From contig CAZXTN010000003.1 of the NCBI GenBank assembly GCA_964643685.1, forward strand, positions 15,895 through 79,894: a DNA stretch of 64,000 nt, read 5' to 3'. Below, one piece after another: positions 10,889-64,000 of the stretch (its first letter is position 1; every line of letters starts with the position of its first letter). A program made the position numbers and the translations under genes. Origin of the DNA: Candidatus Micrarchaeota archaeon. GTDB lineage: Archaea > B1Sed10-29 > JAJRYS01. The notes under the pieces were generated by a model. The model had not been told where the DNA came from. It worked only from the letters and a program-made list of their open reading frames with translations, and ran no database searches.

Positions 10889-10889
10889 A

Positions 10890-11013
10890 AGACAGCTAAG
10901 CGAAGCGCATGCTGTCTACAGGGGAATCAGAAACTCCCTAGAAATCAATCGCCTAAAGACTCAAACGTTTTTCCTTAACAGGAAAAACTGAGAGGGGCAG
11001 CCAGCCCCCTGCG
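10890..11013 (+). repeat. family-A palindromic element copy 1
   Basis: AGACAGCTAAGCGAAGCGCATGCTGTCT...AAACTGA..GGGGCAGCCAGCCCCCTGCG; near-identical ends to 63827-63907. Confidence 0.9.
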
Positions 11014-11019
11014 TTTCGG

Positions 11020-28329: not shown

Positions 28330-28577
28330 AAAAATTAGATTATATATTCTTTCATTCTTCTTTTGATCACCGAGCCGCGGGGGACTCACCGCCCCCCTCA
28401 ACTCTAGGTAACTCCTGCTCCCCCTGCTGACCACATGCGCTTCGCTTAGTGCTCATTTTTAGGGAATTCTTGAAAACTTTGAGTTTTCAAGTTTGCGAAG
28501 TTATATTTCGCATAATCTGATCTCCCTCCTTAATAATAAAAAAATTAGATTATATATTCTTTCATTCTTCTTTTGAT
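28330..28577 (-). repeat. perfect 38-bp direct repeat (28330-28367 = 28540-28577) of the regulator 3' end flanking a 172-bp palindromic insert
   Basis: AAAAATTAGATTATATATTCTTTCATTCTTCTTTTGAT present twice. Confidence 0.95.
28375..28455 (-). repeat. family-A palindromic element copy 2
   Basis: Reverse complement TGAGCACTAAGCGAAGCGCATGTGGTCAGCAGGGGGA...GTCCCCCGCGG matches 50490-50570. Confidence 0.9.
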
Positions 28578-29228
28578 TTCGTCAAGAGGAAGAACAGTAG
28601 TTACTAATGGAATTTTTTCAACCTCTGAAATCTTAAGAGCAACCTTGTCAACTTCAGAAATGTTATGAAGCACAACCATGGTAGGCTTCAATTTAGTTAC
28701 ACGGATTGCAATCAAAGGGCTTCTTCCCATTGAAACATTAGTGAAAATCAAAGCCCTTTCAGTAGTGTTGCCGTAAATTTTAATAAATTCATCAGCAGGC
28801 AGTTCAAGAATAGCGCGGATAGAATCAACAATAGTAAAGCCGTAAATTTTGGTTTTTTTCAGAACTGCTTCGTTTGAAATTATTCTCCCTTCAATTGATT
28901 TTACAAAATCCTTTGACTTCATTGACTTGGAAAAATCCTCCACGTCAAAAACTTCACTTGGCTTCTGCAATTGAAGCTTTTTATAAACCCAGCCTCCTTT
29001 CTGCCTGTCAATTTCAATAATGGCATTCACAAACCTTTTAATAATGCTTGCTCCTGGACTCTTTCTCCTATTCCCTTCATAATCAGAGATAGTTGAAGGA
29101 GTTACATTTAAAAAATCAGCTAATTCAGTTTGAGAAATTCCGAAAATTTCACGCCATTTTTTCAAAGAAGAGCCAGGGTTGTCACTTAAGGTAATTTCCC
29201 CTGCAATGTCAAGCAAAATCTTGTCCAT
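28545..29228 (-). CDS. XRE-family HTH transcriptional regulator (archaeal COG1709-like)
   Basis: IAGEITLS..PG..LKKWRE.F...Q, ISDYE..RRKSPG, RALIFTNVS.GRSP.IAIRV. Confidence 0.9.
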   Translation of the reverse strand: MDKILLDIAGEITLSDNPGSSLKKWREIFGISQTELADFLNVTPSTISDYEGNRRKSPGASIIKRFVNAIIEIDRQKGGWVYKKLQLQKPSEVFDVEDFSKSMKSKDFVKSIEGRIISNEAVLKKTKIYGFTIVDSIRAILELPADEFIKIYGNTTERALIFTNVSMGRSPLIAIRVTKLKPTMVVLHNISEVDKVALKISEVEKIPLVTTVLPLDEIKRRMKEYII

Positions 29229-38989: not shown

Positions 38990-39101
38990 TGGACTCGGCG
39001 GGAGTTGAACCCGCGGCCTCTCCCACGCCAAGGGAGCAATCTGTAGCGAAAACAATCCGTTTGGGGAAGTGGGTTTGTTTTTACCACTGATCTACGAGCC
39101 C
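38990..39101 (-). tRNA. tRNA-Ala(GGC) with ~38-40 nt intron in the D-loop region
   Basis: GGGCTCG/CGAGTCC acceptor with G3:U70, CTCCC-TTGGCGT-GGGAG anticodon arm, GGTTCAACTCC T-arm; extra hairpin between AGTGGT and AGATT. Confidence 0.85.
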
Positions 39102-39473: not shown

Positions 39474-40247
39474 TCACCTCTTTTTTAAAAATTTAAATAA
39501 ACTTGAAAACAAGCTTTTTTTTGCTTGTTTTTTTGTATAGGGGATTCCTGTGATTTCAGATGCTGTTTTTATTATTTCTTGGATGGATTCGTTTGATTCG
39601 TTTGTTTTAATGAGTGGTTTTCCTTTTAAAACGCTTTTTTTAAGTTCTTCATCTACTTTTATTCTAGCTAGGATTGGGACGTTTAAGAGGGATGTGATGT
39701 CTTTTTCGCTTAATTCTCCTTTGGTTTTTTTAATCATGTTTAGGATGACTCCTTTGACTTCTGAGCCCATTTTTTCAGCTGTTAGGTAAGTTTTGTAGCC
39801 GTCTGTGGCGCTCATTGGCTCTAGGGTCATTACGAGGATTGTTTCGCTGCATGCTGCAAAGCAGGCGATTGTGTCTCTGCCTATTCCTGCTGGGCAGTCA
39901 ACTAAGACGTAGTCTGCTTTTTTTTTGAATTCTTTGATGATTGTGATTAGTTTGTCTGGGTCTATTCTTTTGAATTGCTGTGGTGAGATTCCTGCTGGCA
40001 CGAACCAGGCGTTTTTGTCAACTTCGTAGAGTACGTCGTTTATTTCAGCTTCTCCGCTTATTACTTCTTTTAAGGTGATTGGTCTGCCTTCCATTCCGAG
40101 AACTAGTTCAAGGTTAGCCATGTCTAAGTCAGCGTCGACCATTATTACTTTTTTTCCTAGTTTAGATAAAGCTAGTCCTAAGTTTGCTGTGATTGTTGTT
40201 TTGCCTACTCCTCCTTTTCCAGAGGCTATTGCAATTGCTTTGCTCAT
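39474..40247 (-). CDS. minD: MinD-family ATPase
   Basis: SGKGGVGKTT, DADL.MANL, D.PAG, C-terminal amphipathic SLFSSLFKFL. Confidence 0.93.
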   Translation of the reverse strand: MSKAIAIASGKGGVGKTTITANLGLALSKLGKKVIMVDADLDMANLELVLGMEGRPITLKEVISGEAEINDVLYEVDKNAWFVPAGISPQQFKRIDPDKLITIIKEFKKKADYVLVDCPAGIGRDTIACFAACSETILVMTLEPMSATDGYKTYLTAEKMGSEVKGVILNMIKKTKGELSEKDITSLLNVPILARIKVDEELKKSVLKGKPLIKTNESNESIQEIIKTASEITGIPYTKKQAKKSLFSSLFKFLKKR

Positions 40248-40288
40248 TTTTTTTCTCTCCTCTTAATAACTTGCTGTTGGAATTTTTT

Positions 40289-40747
40289 TCACTTCAAGTT
40301 GAAATTTTGGATTCCTTTGTTTATTTTTTTGACAATTTGTCTTGTTTCAATTGCTGAAATGTCACCTGATGTTCTGAATATGTATGTTAAGTCATCTTCT
40401 GTATATAAAACATTATAATGTTCTTTGTCTTTCACTATTAAGAGGTTTGCGTTTGGAAATTCTGTTTTAATGAATTCCTGTAAGGAAGTTGATTTTATTG
40501 CTTTTTCAAATGCTTGTTCTTTTTCAGTTGACATTAAAACGCTGCCGTCTTTTTTTGAAACAATTACTGAGTCAAGCGCGTAGTCTTCAACTACATTTTT
40601 AACATAGCCATCTGGTTCTTTTGCTTCTTCTCTTTTTTTCTGTTCAATTAATTCAAGGAGGATTTGGATTCTTTTTTCAAGTTTTTCTTCTTTGGTTTTC
40701 TTGTTTAAAATTTTATAAGCTATTTTTTTAAAAAAACTCATTTTCAA
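40289..40747 (-). CDS. hypothetical protein (possible roadblock/profilin-like fold)
   Basis: S.IVS..DG.VL.ST pattern. Confidence 0.55.
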   Translation of the reverse strand: MKMSFFKKIAYKILNKKTKEEKLEKRIQILLELIEQKKREEAKEPDGYVKNVVEDYALDSVIVSKKDGSVLMSTEKEQAFEKAIKSTSLQEFIKTEFPNANLLIVKDKEHYNVLYTEDDLTYIFRTSGDISAIETRQIVKKINKGIQNFNLK

Positions 40748-40802
40748 GCGTCACCTTTTTTTTAGTTGATTTCTAGTTACTCAGAAGTAGTTAATTAACA
40801 TT

Positions 40803-41444
40803 TCATCTTTTTTTCAGAAGCTTAGCTAGTTTTGAAAACCTGTCGCTTGCATCTTCTTTTTTTGTCTTCTCCTGTTTTTCTTGGTTTTTTGAAAGTGTTT
40901 TTTTAATTTCATCATTTTCTGATTTTGCCTTGTTTAAAAGCTGAGCCATTGAAGAATCTTTTGCAATTGTTTTAGTTAACCCGAATTTTTTAAACAAGTC
41001 TTCTTTTTGAATGCCTTCTCCTGATTCTTCAGCAAGCTGTTTTTCATAATCTTCTTTGAAGTAATTCAGTATTTTTAAATTTTCTTTGTCTACTGCTTGT
41101 TTCAGGTTGTTCTCTTCATTTAAAGTGAGAATCAACTGCACTTGATAAGAATTGAGTGAAAACAAGTCAATCACACCTATTTTTGCATTCAAGGCATTCA
41201 AGCTTCTTTCAAGAGCTTCTTCTGCTAAAAAGCTTTTGTTAAACTTGTAATAATCATAGTTAGAGGAGACAATTTTGCCGTTGCTGAATACGACTATTCC
41301 TTCTTCTAAACCTTGTTTTCCATGAATGGTTATGCAGAAATACCCGTTGAAGCTTTCATCCATTAATTTTTTCACGTACTGCGCAGGCACAATGCTTGCC
41401 AATTCTTTTCCTGTTTCAACAGGGCTTCCAGCAGACAATTTCAT
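40803..41444 (-). CDS. DUF2226-like protein
   Basis: F.GY...T..G..G.EEG...F..G.IV. Confidence 0.65.
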   Translation of the reverse strand: MKLSAGSPVETGKELASIVPAQYVKKLMDESFNGYFCITIHGKQGLEEGIVVFSNGKIVSSNYDYYKFNKSFLAEEALERSLNALNAKIGVIDLFSLNSYQVQLILTLNEENNLKQAVDKENLKILNYFKEDYEKQLAEESGEGIQKEDLFKKFGLTKTIAKDSSMAQLLNKAKSENDEIKKTLSKNQEKQEKTKKEDASDRFSKLAKLLKKR

Positions 41445-41480
41445 TTTAAAAAAAACAACTCCCTTAAATTTTCTTTTAAT

Positions 41481-41954
41481 TTACTTCAATTTAGTGATTG
41501 TTTTCTTGTTGAACACGAGGATGTGGTCAGCTGTGTTTTTCAAAGCAGCTGCAATCGGCTCGCTTCCAACGACAATTGTTTCCTTACCATGCTCCTTTGC
41601 CTTGGACACAACAGGATGAAAGTCAGAATCGCGTGTCATCAAGGCAATCACATCAATGTGTTCATTGAAAACATACTCCATTGCCTCAGCAGCCATAGGT
41701 GCATCCACGTCATCACTAGTGACTATTACAGGCTCAAAACCTTGATTGACAACAGCTTCAATTAACTTATCAGGCGCAAACTGGTTTAAGAAAATTTTAG
41801 ATACTGTCAAGTTGCCGAATTTCTCCAGCTCGTTCCTAATAATGTTTAAGTCAACGTCAAACTCTTTCCTAAGCATGTTAGGACCGTCAACGAAAAAAGC
41901 AATTTTCTTAACTTCATTTTTTCTTTTTCCAAAACCAAACATTTCAAAAACCAA
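41481..41954 (-). CDS. NYN-domain protein (TIGR00288-like)
   Basis: VDGPNMLRKEF, LIEAV.NQGF, DVD, TRD.DF. Confidence 0.9.
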   Translation of the reverse strand: MVFEMFGFGKRKNEVKKIAFFVDGPNMLRKEFDVDLNIIRNELEKFGNLTVSKIFLNQFAPDKLIEAVVNQGFEPVIVTSDDVDAPMAAEAMEYVFNEHIDVIALMTRDSDFHPVVSKAKEHGKETIVVGSEPIAAALKNTADHILVFNKKTITKLK

Positions 41955-41966
41955 ACTCCTTCTTGC

Positions 41967-42719
41967 TTAAATTTTCAAATCAAATGCCTTGACTGTATTT
42001 TTTTCAGTTGCCTTGCTTGCTTCTTCAAAAGTTATTCCCAGTTCAGATGCAATTAAAGCAATTAATTCGCTTACATTAACAGGCTCGTTCCTCTCCTTTC
42101 TGTTGAAAGGGTTCAAGTAAGGCGAATCAGTTTCAGTAAGCAAGTAATCTAACTCAATTTCCTTAATTAAATCTTTGGTTTTTCTTGAATACAACGCTTT
42201 CGTAGTTACACCTATGAAAAACCCGTTGTCAACAGCTCTTTTAATCAAATCGCTTGAAGCTTCAAATGAATGCATTATCACTTGCGTAGCTGCCCCCCTT
42301 TCAGCCATTTTCAAAGCATCTTCCTCTGCATTTCTAGAATGAATTACAAGGGGCTTGTTCAAATCATTAGCCAATTCAATGAACTTCGTGAAATTTTCTT
42401 TTTGCCTGCCATGATTTTCCTTGTCCCAGTAATAATCCAGCCCAACTTCTCCGACAGCAACCATCTTTTCATGATTCTCTTCAATGAAAGAAATCACTTG
42501 ACTTAACTTGCTTTCTCTCAAAGTAGTAATAGGTCCTAAGCCGAAGCAGGGAAATACAAAACCAAGGAACTCTTCGCTTATTCTTAAATTCTTTTCATTT
42601 GAAGCAAGAGAATCAGACAAGGTAATTACTGCCGAGAGTTTCTGCTTGGCTCTCTCAATAACTTCAATTAAGTCACTGTTGAAACTTGAGTCATCTAAAT
42701 GTGAATGCGAGTCAATCAT
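41967..42719 (-). CDS. tatD: TatD family DNase
   Basis: DSHSHL, GEVGLDY, HSR.A, HSF, ETDSPY. Confidence 0.93.
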   Translation of the reverse strand: MIDSHSHLDDSSFNSDLIEVIERAKQKLSAVITLSDSLASNEKNLRISEEFLGFVFPCFGLGPITTLRESKLSQVISFIEENHEKMVAVGEVGLDYYWDKENHGRQKENFTKFIELANDLNKPLVIHSRNAEEDALKMAERGAATQVIMHSFEASSDLIKRAVDNGFFIGVTTKALYSRKTKDLIKEIELDYLLTETDSPYLNPFNRKERNEPVNVSELIALIASELGITFEEASKATEKNTVKAFDLKI

Positions 42720-42777
42720 TAATTTAAATTAAAACAGTTTAAGTATTTATAAAGGATTTAAGAGTAATTGATTAACT

Positions 42778-43812
42778 ATGAATATTAAAAAACTTACAAT
42801 CACAAGCTTGCTGATAGGAGTGCTTGCTTATGCCTTGATTGGATTTGGCGTGGGCTTACCTGAAGTCATAAAAGCGCTTAAGAACGTCAAGTACGAGTAC
42901 CTATTCTTAGCAGTGTTTGCTTATGCTTTCAGCTTGCTTATGATTACTCTCAGATGGAAGGAAATTACAAACAATGCTGGAATTAAAATAAGCACCTGGA
43001 AGCTTTACTTAATGACTTTAGCTGGAGTGACTTTCAGCAACATTACACCAAGCTCCAGAATGGGAGGAGAGCCAATTAAAGCTTACTTTTTAAACAAGCA
43101 TTCAGGAACTAAAATGAAAACAAGCTTTGCAACAATAGTAAGCGCCAGAATATTCGACGCAATAATCTTCATGCTTGTATCAATAATCGTTCTAAGCTAC
43201 TCAGTAATAAACTTGACTCTTCCAAAATACGTCAGCATACTGCTAATAATTTCCCTTGCAATATCAGTTGGAATAATATGGTTCATTGTATACGTGTCAG
43301 TTCAGCCAAAAGCAGCTGAGTCAATAGCAATATGGTTCATCAGAAAATTCAAAAGATTTTCAAAAACACTAAGGACAGAAGGATTTGAAAACAAGATAAA
43401 GAAAGAAATAAAAGAATACTCAGAGAACATGAACAAATTCCTTAAAACAAAAAAACTTTGGATAACCTGCTCAACTTACACTATCCTAATGTGGTTTTTT
43501 GACGTGCTTAGAATGTACTTGATTTTCTTCGGATTAGGATTGAACACCAACCCAATGATGCTTTTAATGGTCCTTGTACTATCCGGACTGGTTGGAGGAA
43601 TACCTGTTTTCCCAGGAGGCATAGCAGTTACTGAATCAACAATGATAGTGGCATACAACGCCTTTCAAATACCATTAGCAGTAGCAGGAATAGCAACAAT
43701 ACTAGACAGAATGGTTTACTTCTGGCTTTATACTTTCCTCGGACTCATCGCAGCTTACAAACTCGGAATAAAAAAATACGAAAAAGAACAATCAAAAAAC
43801 AAAGAGTTTTAA
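42778..43812 (+). CDS. flippase-like membrane protein (lysylphosphatidylglycerol synthase TM family)
   Basis: RW, NITP..R.GGEP.K, PGG....E, DR. Confidence 0.85.
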   Translation: MNIKKLTITSLLIGVLAYALIGFGVGLPEVIKALKNVKYEYLFLAVFAYAFSLLMITLRWKEITNNAGIKISTWKLYLMTLAGVTFSNITPSSRMGGEPIKAYFLNKHSGTKMKTSFATIVSARIFDAIIFMLVSIIVLSYSVINLTLPKYVSILLIISLAISVGIIWFIVYVSVQPKAAESIAIWFIRKFKRFSKTLRTEGFENKIKKEIKEYSENMNKFLKTKKLWITCSTYTILMWFFDVLRMYLIFFGLGLNTNPMMLLMVLVLSGLVGGIPVFPGGIAVTESTMIVAYNAFQIPLAVAGIATILDRMVYFWLYTFLGLIAAYKLGIKKYEKEQSKNKEF

Positions 43813-43903
43813 ATAATCAAAACAATTATAAAAAAAGACCAAGTTAATAAAAAACAAGGAAACATCAAAAAAAAATTAAAAACAGCAATCGGAGGATGTT
43901 TAA

Positions 43904-44299
43904 ATGTCAGTTACAGTTGGACAAGTAAAAGACTTGAAAGAAGGAAGGTACGTCGTAATAGATGGAGAACCATGCAAAATAACTTCTATTCAAAAATCAA
44001 AGCCAGGTAAACACGGCTCAGCAAAAGCAAGAGTCGAAGGAGTATCCTTATTCAGCGGAAGCAAAAAAACACTTTTGAAAAGCGTTGACTCCTCATGCGA
44101 AATACCAGAACTCCTAAGAAAAAAAGCACAAGTAATAGCAAACCTTGGGGGAAACAGGCTTCAATTAATGGACTTGGAAACCTACGAAACATACGAAATT
44201 GACGTGGACCCAGAATACGCTGACTTGCAATCAGGCAGAGAAGTAGAAGTCCAAGAAATCATGGGAAGAAGATTCTTGACTCATGCCAAAAAGGAATAA
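43904..44299 (+). CDS. eif5a: translation factor aIF5A
   Basis: SKPGKHGSAK hypusination motif, QLMDLETYET. Confidence 0.97.
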   Translation: MSVTVGQVKDLKEGRYVVIDGEPCKITSIQKSKPGKHGSAKARVEGVSLFSGSKKTLLKSVDSSCEIPELLRKKAQVIANLGGNRLQLMDLETYETYEIDVDPEYADLQSGREVEVQEIMGRRFLTHAKKE

Positions 44300-44436
44300 T
44301 AGCTCTTCAAAATTATTTTTTCTTTTAGGGCGTGTTTTTCTTTTCCACAGGGTACACAGAAAAAGAAAAAGCGCGACGGAGGTTCCTAACACACGCAAAG
44401 AAAGAATAAGACTTTCTTCAAACTTACTTTTTTCTT
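44267..44436 (+). repeat. synonymously recoded duplicate of the aIF5A 3' end (44267-44299 vs 44377-44409) flanking a hairpin insert
   Basis: Both translate RRFLTHAKKE*; downstream UTRs also align. Confidence 0.9.
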
Positions 44437-44719
44437 ATTTTTTCAAAACCAGCTCCTTTTTTACTTGAACAAACACCCTATTAGCTTTATTCGTGTATTC
44501 AGGGCTTTTGACACCCCCTTACTTCCAGTATTCGGCGCTGAGAGATTTTTTCAGGAAATAAAAGCTTCTCCGGGCTTTTCGCTTCAAAAAAAGCTGGTAA
44601 AACAGGTTTTTTGATTGAATTTTCCTTTTTCTAGCTTTGTTTAAACTGGTTTTAACTTGCTAGTGTTTGAAAATTATTAAATTAAAATAAAATTTCAACA
44701 AAACTAAAACAAGCAAGTT

Positions 44720-44747
44720 AGTTAACATTATAAGTTAACTTTATATA
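44720..44747 (+). promoter_or_regulatory. palindromic operator abutting the TATA box of a TA-like operon
   Basis: AGTTAAC-ATTATAA-GTTAACT followed by TTATATA, ~20 nt before ATG 44764. Confidence 0.6.
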
Positions 44748-44763
44748 GTTTGGAACTTATAAT

Positions 44764-45081
44764 ATGAAAAAAATTGAATTAATAAAAGAACTTTCATTGC
44801 CTGAAAGTACAAGCAACAAAATAAAACTAAGAAAAAAGATATTTATTGAAAAATCAAAAGTGAAGCAGTTTGCTGTCCAACTTGAAATTGAACAAGATAA
44901 TAAATTCAAGCCAATAATAAGATTTGACGCTTATCATGGCTTTGTTCACAAAGATGAATTTTTCAAAAACAGGCCTAAGAAAAAAACAAAAATTGCTATA
45001 GAAAATTTGAAGGAAGCAGTGGATTTGGCTGAAAAAGATTTGTTAGAAAATCTTGAAATGTATGTGAGGAGATTTGAATGA
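44764..45081 (+). CDS. putative toxin of a type II TA-like pair (R.D..HG..H.D family)
   Basis: F.VQLE.......IIRFDAYHGFVHKD; ATGA overlap with HTH gene. Confidence 0.65.
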   Translation: MKKIELIKELSLPESTSNKIKLRKKIFIEKSKVKQFAVQLEIEQDNKFKPIIRFDAYHGFVHKDEFFKNRPKKKTKIAIENLKEAVDLAEKDLLENLEMYVRRFE

Positions 45082-45422
45082 AAAAAGCGAAAGAAGAGAT
45101 AAAGGATTTTTTCAAACTCGGCAGAAAAATAATAGAAAACCCTGAACTTGCTGAAACAATGCCAAGTGAAATTTTCATTCCCTCGGGAGTCAAAATTTCT
45201 GAAATACTCTCAGAGAAAAGAATAGAACTACTTAGTTTAATTGCCAAACAGCCAAACAAAACAATTAATGAACTTTCAAAAGCGACAAAAAGAAAAAAAG
45301 AAGCAATTAGCAGAGACATTAAATTTCTTAAAAAACACAACTTAGTTGAAACAAAAAAAAGAGGAAGGGAAAAACAAGTTAAAACAAGCATTAAATATGT
45401 ATTAATTCCGATTTCAAACTAA
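45078..45422 (+). CDS. winged-HTH putative antitoxin (HVO_A0114-like)
   Basis: LS.KR.ELL..I......I.EL.....R....ISRD...L....LV......GR.K. Confidence 0.75.
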   Translation: MKKAKEEIKDFFKLGRKIIENPELAETMPSEIFIPSGVKISEILSEKRIELLSLIAKQPNKTINELSKATKRKKEAISRDIKFLKKHNLVETKKRGREKQVKTSIKYVLIPISN

Positions 45423-45429
45423 AAAGAAA

Positions 45430-45864
45430 TCAATTCCCCCCTTTTCTTTTCTTAAGCTTTGGAGTAACATAAGGCAATTTTTTCATTTGAAGGTTTTTCA
45501 GCACAAAAACAGTTGGTGCTTCTTCATCAAAACCGTATTTCTCAAACAATTTCCTTGCAGCTGGCGAAACAGAATTTAAAAAAACAGTTTCAACTCCTTT
45601 CTTTTTCAAGTCATCCAAAACCTTCACTAAATTAACTTCAGCTATTTTCTGTCCTCTGAATTCTTCTAGTGTTTCAACATTTTCCAAATAAGCAGTTTTC
45701 TGCTCCTTTGGATAAATGTAATACCTTAAAAAACCAGCTTCTTTCCTTCCTCCCTGCGTGTTAAGGTAAAGAGTCCTTTTCTTCTCCACATAACCATCTT
45801 TAGTTTTCCTTGATTTAACACTAAAACCAAACAACTTTCTCTTACGCATTGACTCACTAGCCAT
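45430..45864 (-). CDS. GNAT-family acetyltransferase
   Basis: AYLENVET..EFRGQKIA, L.S...A..LFEKYGF. Confidence 0.8.
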   Translation of the reverse strand: MASESMRKRKLFGFSVKSRKTKDGYVEKKRTLYLNTQGGRKEAGFLRYYIYPKEQKTAYLENVETLEEFRGQKIAEVNLVKVLDDLKKKGVETVFLNSVSPAARKLFEKYGFDEEAPTVFVLKNLQMKKLPYVTPKLKKRKGGN

Positions 45865-45925
45865 TACTTTCAATTAAGCAAAAGAAGTTATTTAAAACTA
45901 ATTAAAACTCCTCAAAAAAAGCTTT

Positions 45926-46393
45926 TTACTGTTGCTTTTTCTTAACTCTTAAAACAAGAGGGATCTTCTTCTCCTGCAAGTTTTCAATAACCAAAGGGCC
46001 TCCTCTTTTTGATTTTCTTGTAAAGCCAAAATCTTCATACATTTTTTTAGCCATGTCAGTTGGATACAAAGCAACAAAATTAACCCCCTTAGCTTTCAAA
46101 TCAACAAGAGTCTTATACAAATTAAAAGAAGCTACTTTCCTCCTCCTCTCGCTTGGAAAAGTATCCACGTGAATAATATAAGAAGTATTATCAGGATTAA
46201 TAACATACTCAATCGAACCAATTACCCTACCATTTTCCTTAATCTGCCTTTTTTTAACAACAGAACCATCTTCAACTTCATACTTTCTAACACTCTGCCT
46301 AAACATCTTGCTTTTTCCAGCTTGTTTTGAATACTTAACAGCATCAGCAGCTGAATTCTTCCTAACCCTTCCAGGAACCTTTTTATTAACCAT
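45926..46393 (-). CDS. GNAT-family acetyltransferase
   Basis: YI.HVDT.P.ERRRKVA, L.PT..AK.MYE.FGF; paralog of the neighbour. Confidence 0.8.
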   Translation of the reverse strand: MVNKKVPGRVRKNSAADAVKYSKQAGKSKMFRQSVRKYEVEDGSVVKKRQIKENGRVIGSIEYVINPDNTSYIIHVDTFPSERRRKVASFNLYKTLVDLKAKGVNFVALYPTDMAKKMYEDFGFTRKSKRGGPLVIENLQEKKIPLVLRVKKKQQ

Positions 46394-46462
46394 AATACTT
46401 TTTAATAAGCAAAAATAACTATTTAAAATTAATTAAAAAAAAGCATGCAGAGTTTGAAAAAA

Positions 46463-47926
46463 ATGGCTGACGACATAAAATTCAACAAGAAAAAAAACAA
46501 AGACTTCTCAGAATGGTACTTTGAACTCTTAAAAGCAGCTGACGTCATAGACCAAAGATACCCAGCAAAAGGATTCATAGTCCACAAAGAAATAGCTGCA
46601 ATAGCAGAAAGAGAAATGTACAAATTATTTGAAAAAGAACTAGACAAAACAGGACACAAAATGATGAGATTCCCAGCAGTCATACCAGAATCAGTATTTG
46701 CAAAAGAAGTGGAACACATTGAAGGATTCACACCAGAAGTGTTCTGGATAGAAAAAGGAGGCAACGACGAACTCCCTGAAAAAATGGGACTACGTCCAAC
46801 CTCAGAAACAGCCATGTACACAATGTACTCAAAATGGATAAGAAGCTACAGAGACCTCCCACTCAAAGTTTACCAAGAAGCGCAAGTATGGAGATACGAA
46901 ACCAAACACACCCGTCCTTTACTCAGAGACAGGGAATTCTACTGGATAGAAGCGCACAACGTCTTCGCTTCAAGAGAAGAAGCTGAAAAACAAGTAACAG
47001 AAGACATGAACATCACAGAAAAAGTGCTACATGAACAACTAGGCATACCCTTCCTATTCTTCAAGCGCCCTGAATGGGACAAATTCAACGGAGCAGAATA
47101 CACTTACGGCGCAGACGTGCTAATGCCAAACGGCTTAGTAATACAACAGCCATCAACCCACTTCCTAGGGCAAAATTTCTCAAAAGCATATGACATAAAA
47201 TTCCTAGATGAAGACGAAAAAGAAAAATACGCGTGGCAAACATGCTACGGCCCGGCAATATCAAGAATACTCTCATCAGTAATCGCACTGCACGGCGACG
47301 ACAAAGGACTAATCTTCCCATGGAACATCGCGCCATACCAAGCAGTAATCATACCAATCTACAAAAAAGACACAGACAAAGAAGCAATAGAAAACAACTG
47401 CAAAGAACTGCAAAAACAATTGATTGAAAAAGGAGTTAGAGCAGAAATTGATTTAAGCGAAAAACGCCCAGGAGCAAAGTACTACTATTGGGAATTAAGA
47501 GGAGCATGCATAAGAATAGAAATCGGCGCAAGAGAAGTAGAAAACAAAGAACTTACAATCGCAAGAAGAGACACAGGAGAAAAAATAAAAATAAAACAAG
47601 AAGAACTAGACGCTTACCTTGAAAAACTCCCAAAAGAAATAATTAAAAATTTGAAAACAAAAAGAGACGAAGAATTCAAAAACGCGTTGCACGAAGCAAA
47701 CTCACTTGAAGAATTGAAAAAAGAGTTGGACAAAGGAGGATTCGTTAAAATCAACATTTGTTCAAGAGACACTGACGGAGAACAATGCGCCGATGTCATA
47801 AAAGCAGAAACCAACGGCGGAGAAGTAAGAGGAACACTCCACGGCAAAGAAGAAAAGCCAACAGGAAACTGCATAATATGCGGCAAAAAAGCAAACGCAG
47901 TAGTATACGTAGCAAAATCATATTAG
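46463..47926 (+). CDS. proS: prolyl-tRNA synthetase (archaeal/eukaryal type)
   Basis: FSEWY, LRPTSET, RYETK.T.PL.R.REF.W, HGDDKGL, C-terminal AKSY. Confidence 0.97.
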   Translation: MADDIKFNKKKNKDFSEWYFELLKAADVIDQRYPAKGFIVHKEIAAIAEREMYKLFEKELDKTGHKMMRFPAVIPESVFAKEVEHIEGFTPEVFWIEKGGNDELPEKMGLRPTSETAMYTMYSKWIRSYRDLPLKVYQEAQVWRYETKHTRPLLRDREFYWIEAHNVFASREEAEKQVTEDMNITEKVLHEQLGIPFLFFKRPEWDKFNGAEYTYGADVLMPNGLVIQQPSTHFLGQNFSKAYDIKFLDEDEKEKYAWQTCYGPAISRILSSVIALHGDDKGLIFPWNIAPYQAVIIPIYKKDTDKEAIENNCKELQKQLIEKGVRAEIDLSEKRPGAKYYYWELRGACIRIEIGAREVENKELTIARRDTGEKIKIKQEELDAYLEKLPKEIIKNLKTKRDEEFKNALHEANSLEELKKELDKGGFVKINICSRDTDGEQCADVIKAETNGGEVRGTLHGKEEKPTGNCIICGKKANAVVYVAKSY

Positions 47927-48044
47927 AAAAACCTTTAAAAACAATTAAAAGCATTAATTGAAAACAGAAGAGGGTTTTAACGCGACCATGCAACCAAAAC
48001 AGCCTCTTTCTGAAAAAAACAAATATTGATTAGAGTTGATTATC

Positions 48045-48210
48045 AAATGGACTTTAAGTTAAAAGAAAAACGCTGGAACACGGCTTTTCTTTTAAAAAAA
48101 GAAAACACCGGGAAAAGAAAACTAACCACATTCGACTACGTCGAAGTGCTTAGAAAAAAAGAGTGGTGAAGAAATGGACTTTAAGTTAAAAGAAAAACGC
48201 TGGAATACTG
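48045..48210 (+). repeat. duplicate of the valS 5' end (48047-48083 vs 48174-48210) flanking a hairpin insert
   Basis: Both encode MDFKLKEKRWNT; only AAC/AAT and ACG/ACT differ. Confidence 0.92.
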
Positions 48211-50483
48211 ATATTGAAAACGAGATAAACGAAAAATGGAAGCAGGAAAAATTATACAAATTCAACAAAAACACAGAAAAAGAGATAATTACAATTGACA
48301 ACCCACCAGCATACCCAAGCGGACACTGGCACCCCGGCTCAGCAACAGGATACTCATACATAGACATGATAGCACGCTACGAAAGAATGAACGGAAAAGA
48401 AATCAACTTCCCATACTGCCTTGACAGAAACGGCTTGCCAATTGAAATGGCAGTTGAAAAAAAATACAAAAAAAGCGCACACGACTATGACAGGGAAAAA
48501 TTCCTAAAACTCTGCGAACAAACAATCTCAGAATTCGGAGAAGAAATCAGAACCGGCTACGAAAAACTAGGAATATCAGTAGATTACGAAAACTACTACT
48601 ACACAGACATGGAAGAATACAGAAAACTAACACAAGCAACTTTCATAGAACTATACAAAAAAGGTTTAATCTATGAAGACGACAGGCCAACAAACTGGTG
48701 CACTGGATGCAAAACAACAATAGCAGATTCAGAAATAGAATACAACGAAGGCACAATAAAACTAAACAAGTTAAAATTCAAAGTAAAAGAAACAGGAGAA
48801 GAAATAGAAATAGCAACAACCCGTCCTGAACTATTATGCGCTTGTGAAACCGTAATATACAATCCAAAAGATAGCAGGTACAAGCACTTGAACGGAAAAC
48901 ATGCAATCACTCCAATATACGAAAAAGAAGTTTTAATACAACCGCACCCAGCAGCTTCAATGGAATACGGCTCAGGCTTAGTAATGATATGCTCATACGG
49001 GGACTCAACAGACGTGCAGTTATTCATTGAACTCGGTTTAAAGCCAACAAAGGCAATTGACAAGCATAGGAAAATGACAGAAGCAGCTGGAAAATACGCG
49101 GGATTAACAGTGCCAGAAGCAAGGGAAAAAATAATCAAAGAACTGGAAGAAACAGGCGTGTTAATAGGACAAGAAGACACGCCGCACAGGTACCCAATAT
49201 GCGAAAGATGCCACTCCCCAGTTGAAATCATAGCAATAAAAGAATTCTACTTAAAACAAATAGAGTTCCTAGACAAAGTAAAAGAGATGGCTGACAAGAC
49301 AAAATTCTATCCAGCAAAACACAAGCAAATACTCTTCGACTGGATAGACAGCGTGAAAATCGACTGGCCAATAAGCAGAAGAAGGTACTACGCAACAGAG
49401 ATACCATTATGGTACTGTGAAAAATGCGGAGAACTCCTCCTCCCAGAACCAGGAGAATATTACCAGCCATGGAAAAATAACCCGCCTGAAGGAAGCAAGT
49501 GTTCAAAATGCGGAGGAACAGAATTCAAAGGAGAAACAAGAGTATTCGACACTTGGATGGACTCCTCAATATCAAACTTATACGTAAGCGGATACAAAAG
49601 AGACGAAGAATTATTTAACAAAACATTTGGAAAAATCATACGCCCACAGGGAAGAGACATTGTAAGAACATGGCTCTATTACACAATGCTAAGAAATTAC
49701 CAGTTGCTTGAACAGCCTGCTTTTGAAAAAGTAATGATACACGGCATGGGCTTAGACGAGCATGGTAAGAAGATGAGCAAAAGCAAAGGCAACTTTATCT
49801 CACCAGAAGAAATGCTTTCAAAATACGGAGCAGACGCTTGGAGATTATGGGCAGCTTCAGAAACAAACATGGGAGAAGATTTCAGGATATCAGAAGAAAG
49901 AATAAAAGGAGCGTCAAAATTCCTGACAAAACTATGGAACCTAAGCAGGTTCATCTCCACATTTGAAATAAAAGAAACAGGAGAATTAAAAAACACGGAC
50001 CACTGGATACTCGCAGAATTAAACCAATTAATAAAACAAAGTAAAGAAGGATACGAAGAATACAACTTCTACATCCCAGCTACAAGAATCAAAGAATTTA
50101 TTTGGAACACTTTCTCATCAAACTATGTTGAAATGGTAAAACCAAGAGCATATGAAGGGGACACAGGAGCACTATACACCCTGCACACCTGTTTAAAGAC
50201 AATTTTGAAATTATTAGCTCCAATCACTCCGTTCATAACAGACAAGGTATATAGAGAAGTATATGGAAAAACAGTACACTTAGAGGCATTCCCAGAGGAG
50301 AATGAGAATTGGAACAGCAACTTCAAGGAGTTAACAGAAAAAATAATTGAATTCAATTCAATGGTATGGAAGACAAAAAAAGAACAAGGATTATCACTAA
50401 ACAGCGAAATAGAAGGAATAAAAATACCAAGCGAATTAAAACCATTTGAAGACGACTTAATCAAAATGCACAAGTTGAAATAA
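48174..50483 (+). CDS. valS: valyl-tRNA synthetase (archaeal type)
   Basis: TTRPELL, DWPISRRR, DTWMDSS, RPQG.DI.RTW, KMSKS. Confidence 0.95.
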   Translation: MDFKLKEKRWNTDIENEINEKWKQEKLYKFNKNTEKEIITIDNPPAYPSGHWHPGSATGYSYIDMIARYERMNGKEINFPYCLDRNGLPIEMAVEKKYKKSAHDYDREKFLKLCEQTISEFGEEIRTGYEKLGISVDYENYYYTDMEEYRKLTQATFIELYKKGLIYEDDRPTNWCTGCKTTIADSEIEYNEGTIKLNKLKFKVKETGEEIEIATTRPELLCACETVIYNPKDSRYKHLNGKHAITPIYEKEVLIQPHPAASMEYGSGLVMICSYGDSTDVQLFIELGLKPTKAIDKHRKMTEAAGKYAGLTVPEAREKIIKELEETGVLIGQEDTPHRYPICERCHSPVEIIAIKEFYLKQIEFLDKVKEMADKTKFYPAKHKQILFDWIDSVKIDWPISRRRYYATEIPLWYCEKCGELLLPEPGEYYQPWKNNPPEGSKCSKCGGTEFKGETRVFDTWMDSSISNLYVSGYKRDEELFNKTFGKIIRPQGRDIVRTWLYYTMLRNYQLLEQPAFEKVMIHGMGLDEHGKKMSKSKGNFISPEEMLSKYGADAWRLWAASETNMGEDFRISEERIKGASKFLTKLWNLSRFISTFEIKETGELKNTDHWILAELNQLIKQSKEGYEEYNFYIPATRIKEFIWNTFSSNYVEMVKPRAYEGDTGALYTLHTCLKTILKLLAPITPFITDKVYREVYGKTVHLEAFPEENENWNSNFKELTEKIIEFNSMVWKTKKEQGLSLNSEIEGIKIPSELKPFEDDLIKMHKLK

Positions 50484-50608
50484 AAAAAATGAGCACTAAG
50501 CGAAGCGCATGTGGTCAGCAGGGGGATCAGGATATCCCTAAAACTGAGGGGGACGGCAAGTCCCCCGCGGTTTGGATTGGAAAAAATGCACAAGTTAAAA
50601 TGAAAAAA
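50463..50608 (+). repeat. family-A element copy 3 (50490-50570) flanked by a duplicated valS 3' end (50463-50488 vs 50583-50608)
   Basis: AAAATGCACAAGTTGAAATAA vs AAAATGCACAAGTTAAAATGA. Confidence 0.88.
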
Positions 50609-50637
50609 GTGAAAACCAAAAGTGGTGAATAGATAAA

Positions 50638-53421
50638 ATGTATGACTTTAAAAAAGTAGAAGAGGAAATGCTGAAGCACTGGGAGGAAAACAAAATCTTC
50701 CAAAAGTTAATGGAACAAAACAAGGGAAAAGAAAAATACAGGTTCATAGACGGGCCAATCACTGCAAACAATCCAATGGGAGTTCACCACGCTTACTCAA
50801 GGACATTAAAAGACGCTTATCAAAGGCTAAAAGCAATGCAAGGATACAATCAAAGATTTCAAAACGGATTCGACTGCCACGGCTTGCCAGTGGAAGTGGT
50901 GGTAGAAAAAGATTTAGGCATAAGCACAAAAAAAGAATTAGAACAATATGGCATTGAAAAATTCATTGAGAAATGCAAGCAAAGAGTAGCAAAAATGAGC
51001 GAAATACAAAAACAGCAATCAATACGCTTAGGGCAATGGATGGACTGGGACAACAGTTATTACACAATGAGTGATGAGAACATTGAAACAATATGGGCTT
51101 TCCTTAAAAAAACACATGAAAAAAACATGCTTTACAAGGGGCACAAGGTAGTTCCGTGGTGCTGGAGATGCGGAACATCCCTTTCACAACACGAGTTAGC
51201 AGACGGCTACAAAGAACTGACACACGACACTGTTTACCTGCAATTCAAAATCAAAGGAAGAGACAATGAATACTTGTTAGTTTGGACTACAACGCCATGG
51301 ACTCTTTCTTCAAACGTAGCCTGCGCAGTCGGCTTAGATATTGTTTACTTGAAAGCAAAAAAAGACGGCAAAATTTACTATGTTTCTAAAAAAGTAGCTG
51401 AAGAAGTTTTAGGAAGTGATTATGAAGAACTTGGAGAAGTAAGCGGAGCGCAGTTGATTGGCTTGGAATACGAGGGGCCATACGACAACTTGCCTGCTCA
51501 AAAAGGAGTTGTTCACAAAGTAGTTGACTGGGAAGAAGTAGGAGAAGAAGATGGAACAGGAATAGTTCACATTGCGCCAGGCTGCGGAGCAGAGGACTTC
51601 GAACTAGGAAAAGAAAGAAACCTACCAGCAATAGCCCCAATAGATGAAAACGGCGAATATGTAGAGGGCTTCGGGTGGCTGACAGGAAAACACGTCAAAG
51701 AAGTCAAGCCATTAATCATCAAAGACCTGGAAGAAAGAGGAATCTTGTTCAAAGTTGGAAAAATCACGCACAGGTACCCAACTTGCTGGAGATGCAAAGA
51801 AGAACTCGTGTTCAGAAAAACAGATTCATGGTTCATAAAAGCAGATGAAGTAAGGGACAAAATGAAAGAATTAAACGAAAAAATTTACTGGTACCCTGAC
51901 TTCGGCGGAAAAATAATGAACAACTGGCTAGACAACTTGAAGGACTGGAATTTTTCAAGAAAAAGATACTGGGGAGCGCCTCTTCCATTCTGGGTATGTG
52001 AAAAATGCGGACACCTCCACGTAATAGGCTCGAGAAAAGAACTAGAAGAAAAAGCAATTAAGGGAATTGAGCAATTGAATGATCTTCACCGCCCTAACAT
52101 TGACAAGGTTGTAATTAAATGCGAAGAATGTGGAGCAGATGCAAAAAGAGTTGAGGAAGTCGCAGATGCCTGGCTTGACTCAGGAGTCGTGCCATACTCC
52201 ACTTTGCATTACTTAAAAGACAAGAACTACTGGGAAGAATGGTTCCCAAGCGAATTCATTTCAGAAATGAGAGAACAGATACGCCTATGGTTCTATTCAA
52301 TGCTGTTCATAAGCACGGTAATGGAAGAAAAAACTCCATTCGAGAAAGCGCTTATTTTTGAAAAAGTATACGATGAAAAAGGAAGAGAAATGCACAAGTC
52401 AGGTAAAAACGTCATATGGTTCGATGAAGGCATTGAAAAAATAGGAGCAGATGTAATGAGATGGATGTACGTCAAGACAAACCCGACTCAAAACGTGCTA
52501 TTCGGATACACCATAGGAAGAGAAGTGAACAACAAACTAAGTTACTTAGTAAACATAGGAAACTACTTGGAAAAATTCCTTGAAGAAAAACCAGAGGAAG
52601 TGAAAGCAGTTAAGCCAGAAGACAAGTGGCTGTTGTCAAGGCTTGAGAAGACAAAAAAAGAAGCCACGCAACACCTTGAAAAACTTGAAATACATTTGGC
52701 AACTAGAAAAATAGAAGACTTCCTTGAAAACACCCTGTCAAAAGAATACATCAAATACACAAGAAACAGGATGAAAACAGAGAAAAAAGAAGTAACAGGT
52801 TTGATTTACAAAGCACTCTTAGATACAGCTAAAATGATGGCTCCATTCACGCCATTCATAACAGACTACATTTACCAAAAGCACTTCAAGAAATACGAAG
52901 AAAAAGAAAGCATTCATTTGATGCAATGGCCTTCATACAACGAGCATTTAATTGATGAAAATCTTGAAGAAGAAATGAATGAAGTCAAAAAAACAATAGA
53001 AGAAGGACTAGCTAAAAGAAACGAGCTAAAAATTAATTTAAGGCAGCCTCTTCAAAAAATGACAATAACAGCAAAAAAACTAGACAAGTGGTTTGACTTA
53101 ATAAAAGAACAAGTAAACGTAAAAGAAATAGAAGAAGGAGAAGAGATAGGATTAGACACGAATATTACCCCTGAACTTGCAAAAGAGGGACTAACAAGAG
53201 AGATAACCAGAAGAATACAACAAATGAGAAAAGAATTGAAACTAATAGAATCAGATGAAATACTATTAAATATCAACCCAAAGCCAGACATCAACTACGA
53301 AGAACTTCAAAAAACAACAAACGCAGAAAAAGCAGGAGAATTAAGCGAAGCTGACTTGACTAAAAAATTCAAAGTAAAAGAAACTGAATATGAAATTAAG
53401 CTGAAAAAAAAGAAAAATTAA
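50638..53421 (+). CDS. ileS: isoleucyl-tRNA synthetase (IleRS2 type)
   Basis: DGP.TAN, GFDCHGLPVE, WTTTPWTL, GTG.VHIAP, SR.RYWG; GVHH and EMHKS signature variants. Confidence 0.96.
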   Translation: MYDFKKVEEEMLKHWEENKIFQKLMEQNKGKEKYRFIDGPITANNPMGVHHAYSRTLKDAYQRLKAMQGYNQRFQNGFDCHGLPVEVVVEKDLGISTKKELEQYGIEKFIEKCKQRVAKMSEIQKQQSIRLGQWMDWDNSYYTMSDENIETIWAFLKKTHEKNMLYKGHKVVPWCWRCGTSLSQHELADGYKELTHDTVYLQFKIKGRDNEYLLVWTTTPWTLSSNVACAVGLDIVYLKAKKDGKIYYVSKKVAEEVLGSDYEELGEVSGAQLIGLEYEGPYDNLPAQKGVVHKVVDWEEVGEEDGTGIVHIAPGCGAEDFELGKERNLPAIAPIDENGEYVEGFGWLTGKHVKEVKPLIIKDLEERGILFKVGKITHRYPTCWRCKEELVFRKTDSWFIKADEVRDKMKELNEKIYWYPDFGGKIMNNWLDNLKDWNFSRKRYWGAPLPFWVCEKCGHLHVIGSRKELEEKAIKGIEQLNDLHRPNIDKVVIKCEECGADAKRVEEVADAWLDSGVVPYSTLHYLKDKNYWEEWFPSEFISEMREQIRLWFYSMLFISTVMEEKTPFEKALIFEKVYDEKGREMHKSGKNVIWFDEGIEKIGADVMRWMYVKTNPTQNVLFGYTIGREVNNKLSYLVNIGNYLEKFLEEKPEEVKAVKPEDKWLLSRLEKTKKEATQHLEKLEIHLATRKIEDFLENTLSKEYIKYTRNRMKTEKKEVTGLIYKALLDTAKMMAPFTPFITDYIYQKHFKKYEEKESIHLMQWPSYNEHLIDENLEEEMNEVKKTIEEGLAKRNELKINLRQPLQKMTITAKKLDKWFDLIKEQVNVKEIEEGEEIGLDTNITPELAKEGLTREITRRIQQMRKELKLIESDEILLNINPKPDINYEELQKTTNAEKAGELSEADLTKKFKVKETEYEIKLKKKKN

Positions 53422-63581: not shown

Positions 63582-63682
63582 TATAATTCATAATTAAACA
63601 AAGTAATGTTTATAAATCATTAGCATTACAATAAAAAAGCAGCTGCTACTCTCTTTTTTAAAAAAAAAGCAACTGCAGAAAA

Positions 63683-63757
63683 GGGCCGCTAGCTTAGTCT
63701 GGTTGGAGCATTCGACTGATAATCGAAAGGTCGGGAGTTCAAATCTCCTGCGGCCCA
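63683..63757 (+). tRNA. tRNA-Ile(GAT)
   Basis: GGGCCGC/GCGGCCC acceptor, TTCGA-CTGATAA-TCGAA anticodon arm, GTTCAAATC. Confidence 0.95.
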
Positions 63758-63977
63758 CTTAACAAAACCAAAAAAAACAAAAACAAATTTTTTCTTTTAG
63801 GGCGTGTTTTTCTCTTTATCAAAAAAAGACAGCTAAGCGAAGCGCATGCTGTCTGCAGGGGAATCAGGAAGAACTTGAAACTGAAGGGGGCAGCCAGCCC
63901 CCTGCGGTTAAGTGAGGATCTCCTGCGGCCCACTTAACAAAACCAAAAAAAAACAAAAACAAATTTTTTCTTTAGGG
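63743..63977 (+). repeat. 60-bp direct repeat (63743-63802 vs 63918-63977) of the tRNA-Ile 3' end plus trailer, flanking family-A element copy 4 (63827-63907)
   Basis: ATCTCCTGCGGCCCACTTAACAAAACC...TTTAGGG twice, differing only in homopolymer lengths. Confidence 0.93.
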
Positions 63978-64000
63978 AGAATTAAAAAAAAGGATTAAAT

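Follow-up and report, generated by a model that had tools for sequence, protein, structure and literature searches.

How does the end of a gene come to be encoded twice, 110 nt apart, in codons that are mostly different and that specify the same peptide? The question is raised by the gene for aIF5A in a stretch of 64,000 nucleotides (the window) taken from contig CAZXTN010000003.1 of a Candidatus Micrarchaeota archaeon. The last ten codons of this gene, encoding RRFLTHAKKE, are followed by a hairpin-bearing insert and then by a second encoding of the same ten residues and stop. The doubled end is real and highly non-random, and it is one of at least eight loci of similar construction in this genome. 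We tentatively favour the reading that the resident end of aIF5A was displaced by another gene end, which came in together with a small element. The parts of the locus are these.

43904–44299, + strand: aIF5A gene, 131 aa, an intact open reading frame (ORF) that ends with copy 1; Pfam matches IF5A-like_N (E = 2.3e-15) and EFP_N
44267–44299, + strand: copy 1, the last ten codons and TAA (RRFLTHAKKE and stop); the translated copy, read as the incomer
44300–44326, + strand: trailer 1, with a T-tract at its end, TTATTTTTTCTTTT; aligns with trailer 2
44316–44374, + strand: 59-nt stretch (T-tract, AGGGCG and hairpin), denoted hp, read as a small inserted element; recurs in contig C8 with one mismatch
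44330–44374, + strand: 45-nt hairpin with arms GCGTGTTTTTCTTTT (left, 44330–44344) and AAAAAGAAAAAGCGC (right, 44360–44374) and a 15-nt loop (44345–44359)
44377–44409, + strand: copy 2, the same ten codons and TAA otherwise coded, read as the displaced resident end
44410–44437, + strand: trailer 2, with a T-tract, continuing into sequence orthologous to the intergenic region of a related locus, L033

The doubled end of the aIF5A gene

The source genome (695 kb in 12 contigs, 36% G+C, estimated to be 91.75% complete) contains no other aIF5A match; the window lies in its contig C3. Copy 1 is coded AGA AGA TTC TTG ACT CAT GCC AAA AAG GAA TAA and copy 2 CGG AGG TTC CTA ACA CAC GCA AAG AAA GAA TAA. 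They differ at 10 of 33 bases, so that 8 of the 10 sense codons are changed and not one residue. In the two codings, the eight changed codons and the unchanged peptide we reproduce what an earlier note on this DNA had described from the letters alone. The same is true of two further features that it had pointed out: the trailers behind the two stops align, with 89% identity over 18 nt between 44304–44321 and 44415–44432 (repeat family D4), and the hairpin is present between the copies. The T-tract of trailer 1 is likely to act as an archaeal termination signal.

Copy 2 is probably not translated. The offset of 110 nt places it out of frame with aIF5A, it is preceded by two successive stops (TAA TAG) and a T-tract, and the only start context available to it is a GTG within the hairpin. 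The 77 nt that separate the copies hold no ORF of note. Simple tandem duplication is ruled out, since the whole period is not repeated head to tail; some 60 of its 110 nt recur, and there is no second hairpin behind copy 2. The folding energy of the hairpin does not stand out from that of shuffled versions (z = −0.06), and we therefore make no claim for its thermodynamic stability. No Rfam family matched either this hairpin or the second type of insert discussed below, E, in searches of the window at gathering thresholds and of 40000–48000, 50300–50800 and 63600–64000 at E values up to 1–10. No bulge-helix-bulge motif is evident by eye in the sequence or fold of the aIF5A insert, no dedicated search having been run.

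Might an assembler have chained the contig ends of two strains, so creating the doubling as an artefact of strain mixing? Artefacts of this kind do exist in the assembly. Two of its N-gaps are flanked by identical 55-nt ends (C1:199881–200090 and C4:40522–40730), and contig C8 is redundant, probably representing a second strain. For aIF5A, however, we find the idea hardly credible. A contig of 309 nt, from another run (X3) with other sample and study codes and built by another assembler, corresponds to 44268–44576 with no differences and no gaps. The earlier note had called for reads spanning both copies; the X3 sequence, a contig and not raw reads, spans them. A second contig of 151 nt, from run X4, covers 44209–44359, again with no differences. 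The depths are low, at 2.5 for X3 and 2 for X4. Moreover the two copies have no long word in common that would lead a de Bruijn graph to chain them, and the hairpin between them is real additional sequence. An insert-free allele of aIF5A was not seen in the contigs of any run, a weak negative given the sparse coverage; run X1, which may be the source, yielded no contig nearly identical to this site, but gaps in the cover by contigs are not evidence. The runs that hold the stretch are labelled as hydrothermal vent metagenomes. As a further observation on the assembly, the sequence at the end of C3 is the same as that at the start of C6.

Many short local duplications with small inserts occur in this genome and the two trailers are still 89% alike, both of which could be taken to indicate a plain local duplication that has drifted neutrally, the synonymous pattern being luck. 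Against this, not one of 300,000 trials in which 10 random substitutions were made preserved RRFLTHAKKE. Analytically, 21 of the 90 single substitutions of the gene end are synonymous, and this fraction to the tenth power is ~5e-7. A bias of changed codons towards synonymous ones is also seen at two of the other loci, 7 versus 2 in aCPSF1 and 5 versus 1 in an ScpB-like gene, although these were picked by a scan for residue identity. We consider neutral drift very improbable. Because so few single substitutions are synonymous, a duplicate arising in place should gain mostly non-synonymous changes. Purely synonymous divergence thus indicates either that the copies were gene ends before they were joined, or that both are still under selection. 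Prior shaping as gene ends is the simpler of the two, and is favoured. The action of a diversity-generating retroelement was also considered and rejected; 4 of the 10 differences fall on A whichever copy is taken as template, and the genome has no RVT_1.

Small structured inserts between repeated gene ends

The hp stretch is not unique to aIF5A. It recurs at C8:59–117, which matches C3:60210–60268 at 98.3% over 59 nt, with one mismatch. There it stands directly behind the T-rich trailer of a gene for a 47-aa membrane-type protein, and after the hairpin comes a second copy of the last 10 codons, stop and trailer of that gene, identical over the 55 nt that remain to the contig end. Contig C8 (25.8 kb) duplicates C1:75876–101373 over 25.5 kb at 99.95% identity, and in the C1 counterpart the gene end is present once, without the hairpin. 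Filled and empty versions thus coexist at 99.95% identity, showing that the C8-type insertion is polymorphic and recent. The hairpin element is mobile or recombinogenic. A search for the hairpin pattern in the 18 genomes of the order detected it in this one and in none of the other 17. The reading frames that pass through the hairpin differ between the two hairpin loci.

This polymorphism bears on another explanation for the synonymous divergence, namely that the duplication occurred in place and both frames are under selection, either as a 110-nt cassette that cycles in the manner of e14 or through a process at the RNA level that makes use of copy 2. Coexisting filled and empty forms of the sister hairpin locus are what a cycling cassette would give, the identical copies at the young loci show that target duplication does occur, and selection on both frames would account for a divergence that is purely synonymous. 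Several properties of the aIF5A locus are difficult to reconcile with it. At 70% identity the copies can hardly recombine together, and no empty allele appears among the contigs compared, for what that sparse cover is worth. Copy 2 is out of frame behind two stops and a T-tract, with nothing but the hairpin GTG to start from, and the frames through the hairpin are not the same at its two loci. In addition, the downstream copy at aCPSF1 looks to be decaying, with R replaced by K and K by G. Maintenance of both frames is therefore in our view improbable.

How widespread are repeated gene ends in this genome? We took 2,921 stop-to-stop ORF ends and sought the last 7 amino acids and stop of each again, with at most one mismatch, within 400 nt downstream. 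Eleven ORF ends gave a match, compared with none in a control window 2.0–2.4 kb downstream. Three of these can be set aside as trivial, namely an N-gap, a stretch of low complexity by an N-gap, and a tandem gene repeat. The protein scan is blind to repeats shorter than 7 codons. There are at least eight loci in the genome that have the order end, insert, end, and they include tRNA genes. The earlier note implied a single event; aIF5A is instead one case of a recurrent process. The loci are as follows.

aIF5A: RRFLTHAKKE and stop twice, 10 of 33 bases different; insert, the 59-nt hairpin element
aCPSF1 (C1:194077–195948): RNLDSIRLK and stop, then KNLDSIRLG and stop, 14 of 30 bases different; insert, 37 nt with its own hairpin
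ScpB-like gene (C6): STKAYQTVL and stop, then STKVYQTVL and stop; insert, an E element
50463–50618, + strand: end of a class I aminoacyl-tRNA synthetase gene (ValRS-like, 48174–50483); KMHKLK and stop twice, with TTG changed to TTA and TAA to TGA; insert, E at 50489–50575
28330–28577, − strand: end of a helix-turn-helix (HTH) protein gene (28545–29228); last 10 codons, stop and TTTTT twice, identical, at 28540–28577 and 28330–28367; insert, E at 28370–28456 with a partial E ahead of it
63683–63976, + strand: tRNA-Ile (63683–63758); 3′ part of the tRNA and trailer twice, at 63743–63802 and 63918–63976, around E at 63826–63912
C2:71304, C2:27380 and C7:11395: smaller cases with short inserts

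The copies at the sister loci are spaced by 37–170 nt. The repeats themselves are from 17 to ~75 nt long, being ~60 nt at aIF5A, at least 55 nt in C8, 38 nt at the HTH gene and 17–59 nt at the tRNA loci. Five loci begin their repeat 30–32 nt before the stop and others at ~18–26 nt, so that we claim no rule of ten codons. Over six loci and 55 codons, 25 codons are unchanged, 25 have synonymous changes and 5 non-synonymous, a ratio that is inflated by the selection of residue identity in the scan. The synthetase gene also has a repeat at its other end. Its first 11 codons (ATGGACTTTAAG...) are duplicated 127 nt upstream (48045–48078 and 48172–48205), with a 93-nt insert containing a T/A-rich palindrome between; this is a like duplication, at a 5′ gene end.

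Many of these inserts have in common E, a G+C-rich sequence of ~87 nt that forms three hairpins, the first with the loop TAAGCGAAGCGCA. In the window it is found at 28370–28456 (−), 50489–50575 (+), 63826–63912 (+) and 10889–11019 (+), and there are further copies in C1, C2, C4, C6 and C9. In an alignment of eight copies the consensus fold has 25 base pairs, of which 10 show compensatory changes, such as AAACTG...CGGTT alternating with AAATG...CGTTT. A covariance model built from this alignment (R1) has 18 matches in this genome at E values up to 0.1. Matches occur in 5 of the 31 genomes of the class, this one included, and elsewhere they are mostly in genus G004 (9). R1 found nothing in 20 aIF5A loci of relatives. 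None of its 18 matches lies at 44300–44380, and the aIF5A insert is not an E copy. The two are linked by 26 nt only: the first 26 nt of the aIF5A insert also begin the insert behind tRNA-Ile at the end of the window, where they form part of the linker beside E.

E is always on the same strand as the gene upstream of it, and it has no terminal inverted repeats. Its 3′ end (GCGGTTCGG and 0–6 nt more) directly abuts the second copy of the gene end, giving a sharp terminus, while the 5′ side is joined to the first copy by an A-rich linker of variable nature. This arrangement is consistent with a unit made up of gene end, linker and element that would be joined to its target at the 3′ terminus. At tRNA loci, here and in G004, the repeat starts in or next to the T-loop, and in both there are tandem arrays in which gene end and E alternate (end-E-end-E-end). 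Microhomology of the 3′ tail of E with a T-loop-like target suggests that annealing or template switching may be involved.

The E copy at 10889–11019 has an extra internal hairpin of ~40 nt, and no duplication of the upstream gene end is detectable there. At C6:36150–36620 (L116) there is a tRNA with a long insert in its T-loop, followed by two different E copies that each precede another tRNA 3′ end; the insert ends GGCAGTG, resembling the 3′ tail of E, as would fit old insertions becoming T-loop introns. Lastly, C2:3290–3560 (L148:1421–1691) is a candidate structured RNA of ~250 nt, the ends of which pair (GCGCTGGCGGCAG...CTGCCACGCCAGC). It shares with E the loop of hairpin 1 and the GCAGGG that follows it, its GAGTCC could pair with GGACTC, and there are homologous stretches in G001 and G004. 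It has no Rfam match; at a guess, it could be a reduced RNase P RNA.

Proposed resident and incoming ends

Which of the two aIF5A ends was there before? The earlier note proposed that the downstream copy was the displaced original, and suggested an alignment of the 3′ ends of the gene from related genomes. aIF5A is present in 40 of 41 genomes searched. Among 104 loci in which aIF5A is followed by 150 nt or more of sequence, the present one alone has a second gene end, the other 103 having none. The nearest sequence is L033, a locus on a metagenome contig with the same two upstream genes, where the identity of aIF5A is 88% for the protein and 82% for the DNA. L033 has one gene end only, MGRKFLTHAKKE and stop, and no hairpin. 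Over its last 9 codons there is 1 difference in 27 bases from copy 2, against 6 from copy 1, and so this single end carries the codons of copy 2 (26 of 27 bases, versus 21 of 27 for copy 1). Just 2 of 113 gene-body windows of this length come equally near to L033. Orthology with L033 resumes near 44468, ~60 nt past copy 2, and includes a conserved motif at 44510–44533. This part of the proposal is thus favoured by the nearest relative; no more distant lineage matching copy 1 came to light in the genome collection.

A similar conclusion is suggested by aCPSF1, the C-terminus of which is conserved across the order. The end of this gene is re-encoded 70 nt downstream around the 37-nt insert. In the downstream copy the core AAC CTT GAC TCA ATA AGG is identical over all 18 bases to that of genus G004 and has one difference from that of G001; the corresponding core within the gene is 6 of 18 bases away from both. 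The in-gene copy uses CGT twice, CTC, TCC and ATC, which make up 6, 6, 6 and 13% of their codon families, and its codon score is matched by just 1 of 604 windows of its own gene. The downstream copy has R changed to K, and its final K, found in 16 of 19 relatives, changed to G; such departures from residues that most relatives share are as expected for a decaying relic. On these comparisons the downstream copy looks like the resident end of aCPSF1 and the translated copy like the incomer. The 37-nt insert (C1:195949–195985) occurs once in the genome and includes a perfect hairpin, CAATTAATC-TCT-GATTAATTG. A stretch of rare codons before the in-gene copy, GCGCCTCG, can pair with GAGGCG just past its stop.

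We tentatively suggest the following course of events, to which we would give a little less than an even chance. A piece of ~110 nt, comprising copy 1, its T-rich trailer and the palindromic element of ~60 nt, would have been inserted immediately upstream of the resident last ten codons of aIF5A, perhaps from another lineage. The aIF5A frame would now enter the incoming end and stop there, leaving the resident end (copy 2) and its own trailer to persist 110 nt downstream as an untranslated relic. Each copy would have been selected as a true gene end before the two were joined, from which it follows that all the differences should be synonymous. More generally, it is a recurrent feature of this genome that a small structured element (hp or E) separates the 3′ end of a gene or tRNA from a second copy of that end. 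The joint may have been made by site-specific recombination, by microhomology-mediated joining, or by template switching at the 3′ end of the element.

A number of observations weigh against this reading. No donor lineage with the codons of copy 1 was found in the genome collection. Exact or degenerate patterns for copy 1, copy 2, the hairpin and hairpin 1 of E had no matches in that collection, and those for the two hairpins none in the viral collection, although both collections may lack entries closely similar to this genome. The similarity of copy 2 to L033 exceeds that of 98% of the gene body, which goes beyond simple vertical descent. The C-terminus of aIF5A varies among relatives, so that ten identical residues with 8 of 10 codons changed would be unexpected for two diverged lineages, and change at synonymous sites is close to saturation although the non-coding trailers still agree at 89%. 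The copies at the C8 and HTH-gene loci do not differ at all, indicating that a fresh insertion can duplicate the target itself, with no need for a foreign end. Neither an integrase (PF00589) nor a reverse transcriptase (PF00078) was found in this genome of 91.75% estimated completeness, and the Cas12f1-like_TNB/OrfB zinc-ribbon family (PF07282) gave just a sub-threshold match of 23.6 bits in a 94-aa frame. There was thus no matching transposase among these three families, to which the search was confined. Finally, codon usage at aIF5A fits the opposite polarity. The score of copy 2 lies below those of all 112 gene-body windows, mainly because of CGG, which accounts for 1% of arginine codons.

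In that opposite polarity copy 1 and trailer 1 would be resident, and a unit of hairpin, copy 2 and trailer 2 would have come from a related lineage and been inserted in the T-tract. Copy 1 is indeed ordinary in its codon score (17 of 112 gene-body windows are as low or lower) and in its distance from L033. It differs from L033 at 7 of 33 bases, within the range of 3–9 per 33 nt of the gene body, and 36 of 113 windows of 27 nt are as far away, with 6 differences or more; there is no step in divergence along the gene that would mark a breakpoint inside aIF5A. The unusual closeness of copy 2 to L033 could be explained by a donor resembling L033, and the left joint would lie in TTTTTTCTT, a stretch that the two trailers have in common with the beginning of the hairpin unit. 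Trailer 2 and what lies beyond are, however, not like L033; nothing aligns right past the stop, and the conserved block is ~75% identical. Never having been translated, a copy borne by the element would have no reason to remain a perfect frame unless the import were very recent. At aCPSF1 it is the in-gene copy that looks foreign, and the sharp 3′ end of E beside the second copy fits a terminus better than an internal joint. We regard this polarity as unlikely.

The codons themselves do not settle the matter. The earlier note held that copy 2 matched the codons of the gene body better, and this did not survive calculation. Scored by gene-body usage the copies are alike (−10.6 versus −10.2), and scored by genome usage copy 1 is the better (−9.8 versus −12.9 for copy 2). 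We have rejected codon usage as a test of polarity, as it gives contradictory answers at aIF5A and aCPSF1. That the in-gene copy is the end borne by the element is thus favoured by the relatives at both genes and opposed by codon usage at aIF5A, and we keep only tentatively to copy 2 as the displaced original.

The conserved motif downstream of aIF5A merits a brief description. GACACCCCCTTACTTCCAGTATTC (44510–44533) follows aIF5A here and in L033, as well as at loci L002, L003 and L004, which represent three further genera of the family. It is kept though the next gene differs, and occurs once only in this genome; in L002 and L003 it is part of an inverted repeat with GAATACTGGAA. In L004 the gene for prolyl-tRNA synthetase comes directly after aIF5A, and here some 2 kb lies between. 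Within this, 44764–46393 has a DUF7718 gene paired with an HTH gene of the HVO_A0114 type and, on the other strand, two GNAT acetyltransferase genes. It is possibly an inserted block. Elsewhere in the window, 38990–39101 (−) is a 112-nt tRNA match (Rfam, 50.5 bits) missed by ARAGORN, and presumably contains an intron.

Likeness to known systems and significance

The closest known case is that of prophage e14 at icd of E. coli, a site also used by phage 21. The 3′ end of icd is provided by e14, with the fragment icdC remaining downstream, and on excision of e14 icd undergoes a set of synonymous changes (PMC13626634). In these respects the arrangement is the same as that proposed for aIF5A: the gene is kept intact by the incomer's own end, the resident end lies downstream in the same orientation, and the differences between the ends are largely synonymous, as are all 10 at aIF5A. 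The scale is very different, with 77 nt between the aIF5A copies (37–170 nt at the sister loci) compared with 15 kb in e14. The present inserts moreover carry no integrase, none having been found in the genome, and they have many targets, each with its own repeat of 17 to ~75 nt.

Other systems share some of these properties. Miniature inverted-repeat transposable elements and other non-autonomous transposons are likewise small, multi-copy, non-coding and structured or palindromic, with direct target repeats and polymorphic presence; the hp insert is itself a palindrome with arms of 14–15 nt. Their target duplications are short, of fixed length and identical at birth, whereas the repeats here are long and variable and always include a functional 3′ end. 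E differs further in lacking terminal inverted repeats, in its fixed 3′ end and ragged 5′ side, and in always taking the orientation of the target gene. At three loci the repeats differ synonymously, a feature that target-site duplication leaves unexplained. Homology-facilitated illegitimate recombination of foreign DNA, reportedly described by de Vries and Wackernagel in 2002, also has homology on one side and microhomology on the other, and imports a diverged allele together with donor flank. It leaves unexplained the presence of the same element, with the same 3′ terminus, at many joints. In islands that target tRNA and tmRNA genes, the 3′ part of the RNA gene is found in both attL and attR; at the tRNA loci here the repeat starts in the T-loop, which is said by Williams, writing in 2002, to be a known sublocation for integrases. 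A parallel exists within a natural population of archaea, in which versions of a tRNA locus are distinguished by an inserted element with a tRNA fragment at its flank, and this was proposed as a route to tRNA introns and split tRNAs (Sugahara et al. 2012, PMC3293823). The element described there is of 1.8 kb and has a recombinase gene; those found here are of 60–170 nt and have no gene, and protein genes are hit too. In the literature searched we found no published account of an element of the present kind, and recurrent small elements between duplicated gene ends in this lineage are apparently undescribed.

These comparisons lead us to a broader proposal, for which we would claim a rather modest likelihood: that this lineage harbours an undescribed class of enzyme-less miniature elements of 60–170 nt, including E and the hairpin, that replace gene ends. 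They would home to the last 20–40 nt of essential genes and to the T-loops of tRNAs, each carrying a recoded end of its target so that the host gene stays intact. No resident integrase or reverse transcriptase would be needed for their spread among related lineages, which might involve an RNA intermediate or a helper supplied by a virus or the host. Decay of the upstream copy at tRNA loci would turn the inserts into non-canonical T-loop introns.

If the reading of an incoming gene end holds, essential genes for translation and RNA processing in an ultra-small archaeon are being edited at their 3′ ends by tiny structured elements, in a miniature, integrase-less counterpart of prophage integration into icd. 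E would be a new family of structured elements, of 87 nt with compensatory base pairs and no match in Rfam. The reading would also suggest, in a form that can be tested, how the unusual T-loop introns and fragmented tRNA genes of these archaea could arise. Exchange of DNA between diverged lineages of DPANN-like archaea, which are otherwise hard to study, would be recorded directly in the sequence. For annotation, a silent second gene end downstream of a gene marks such an event.

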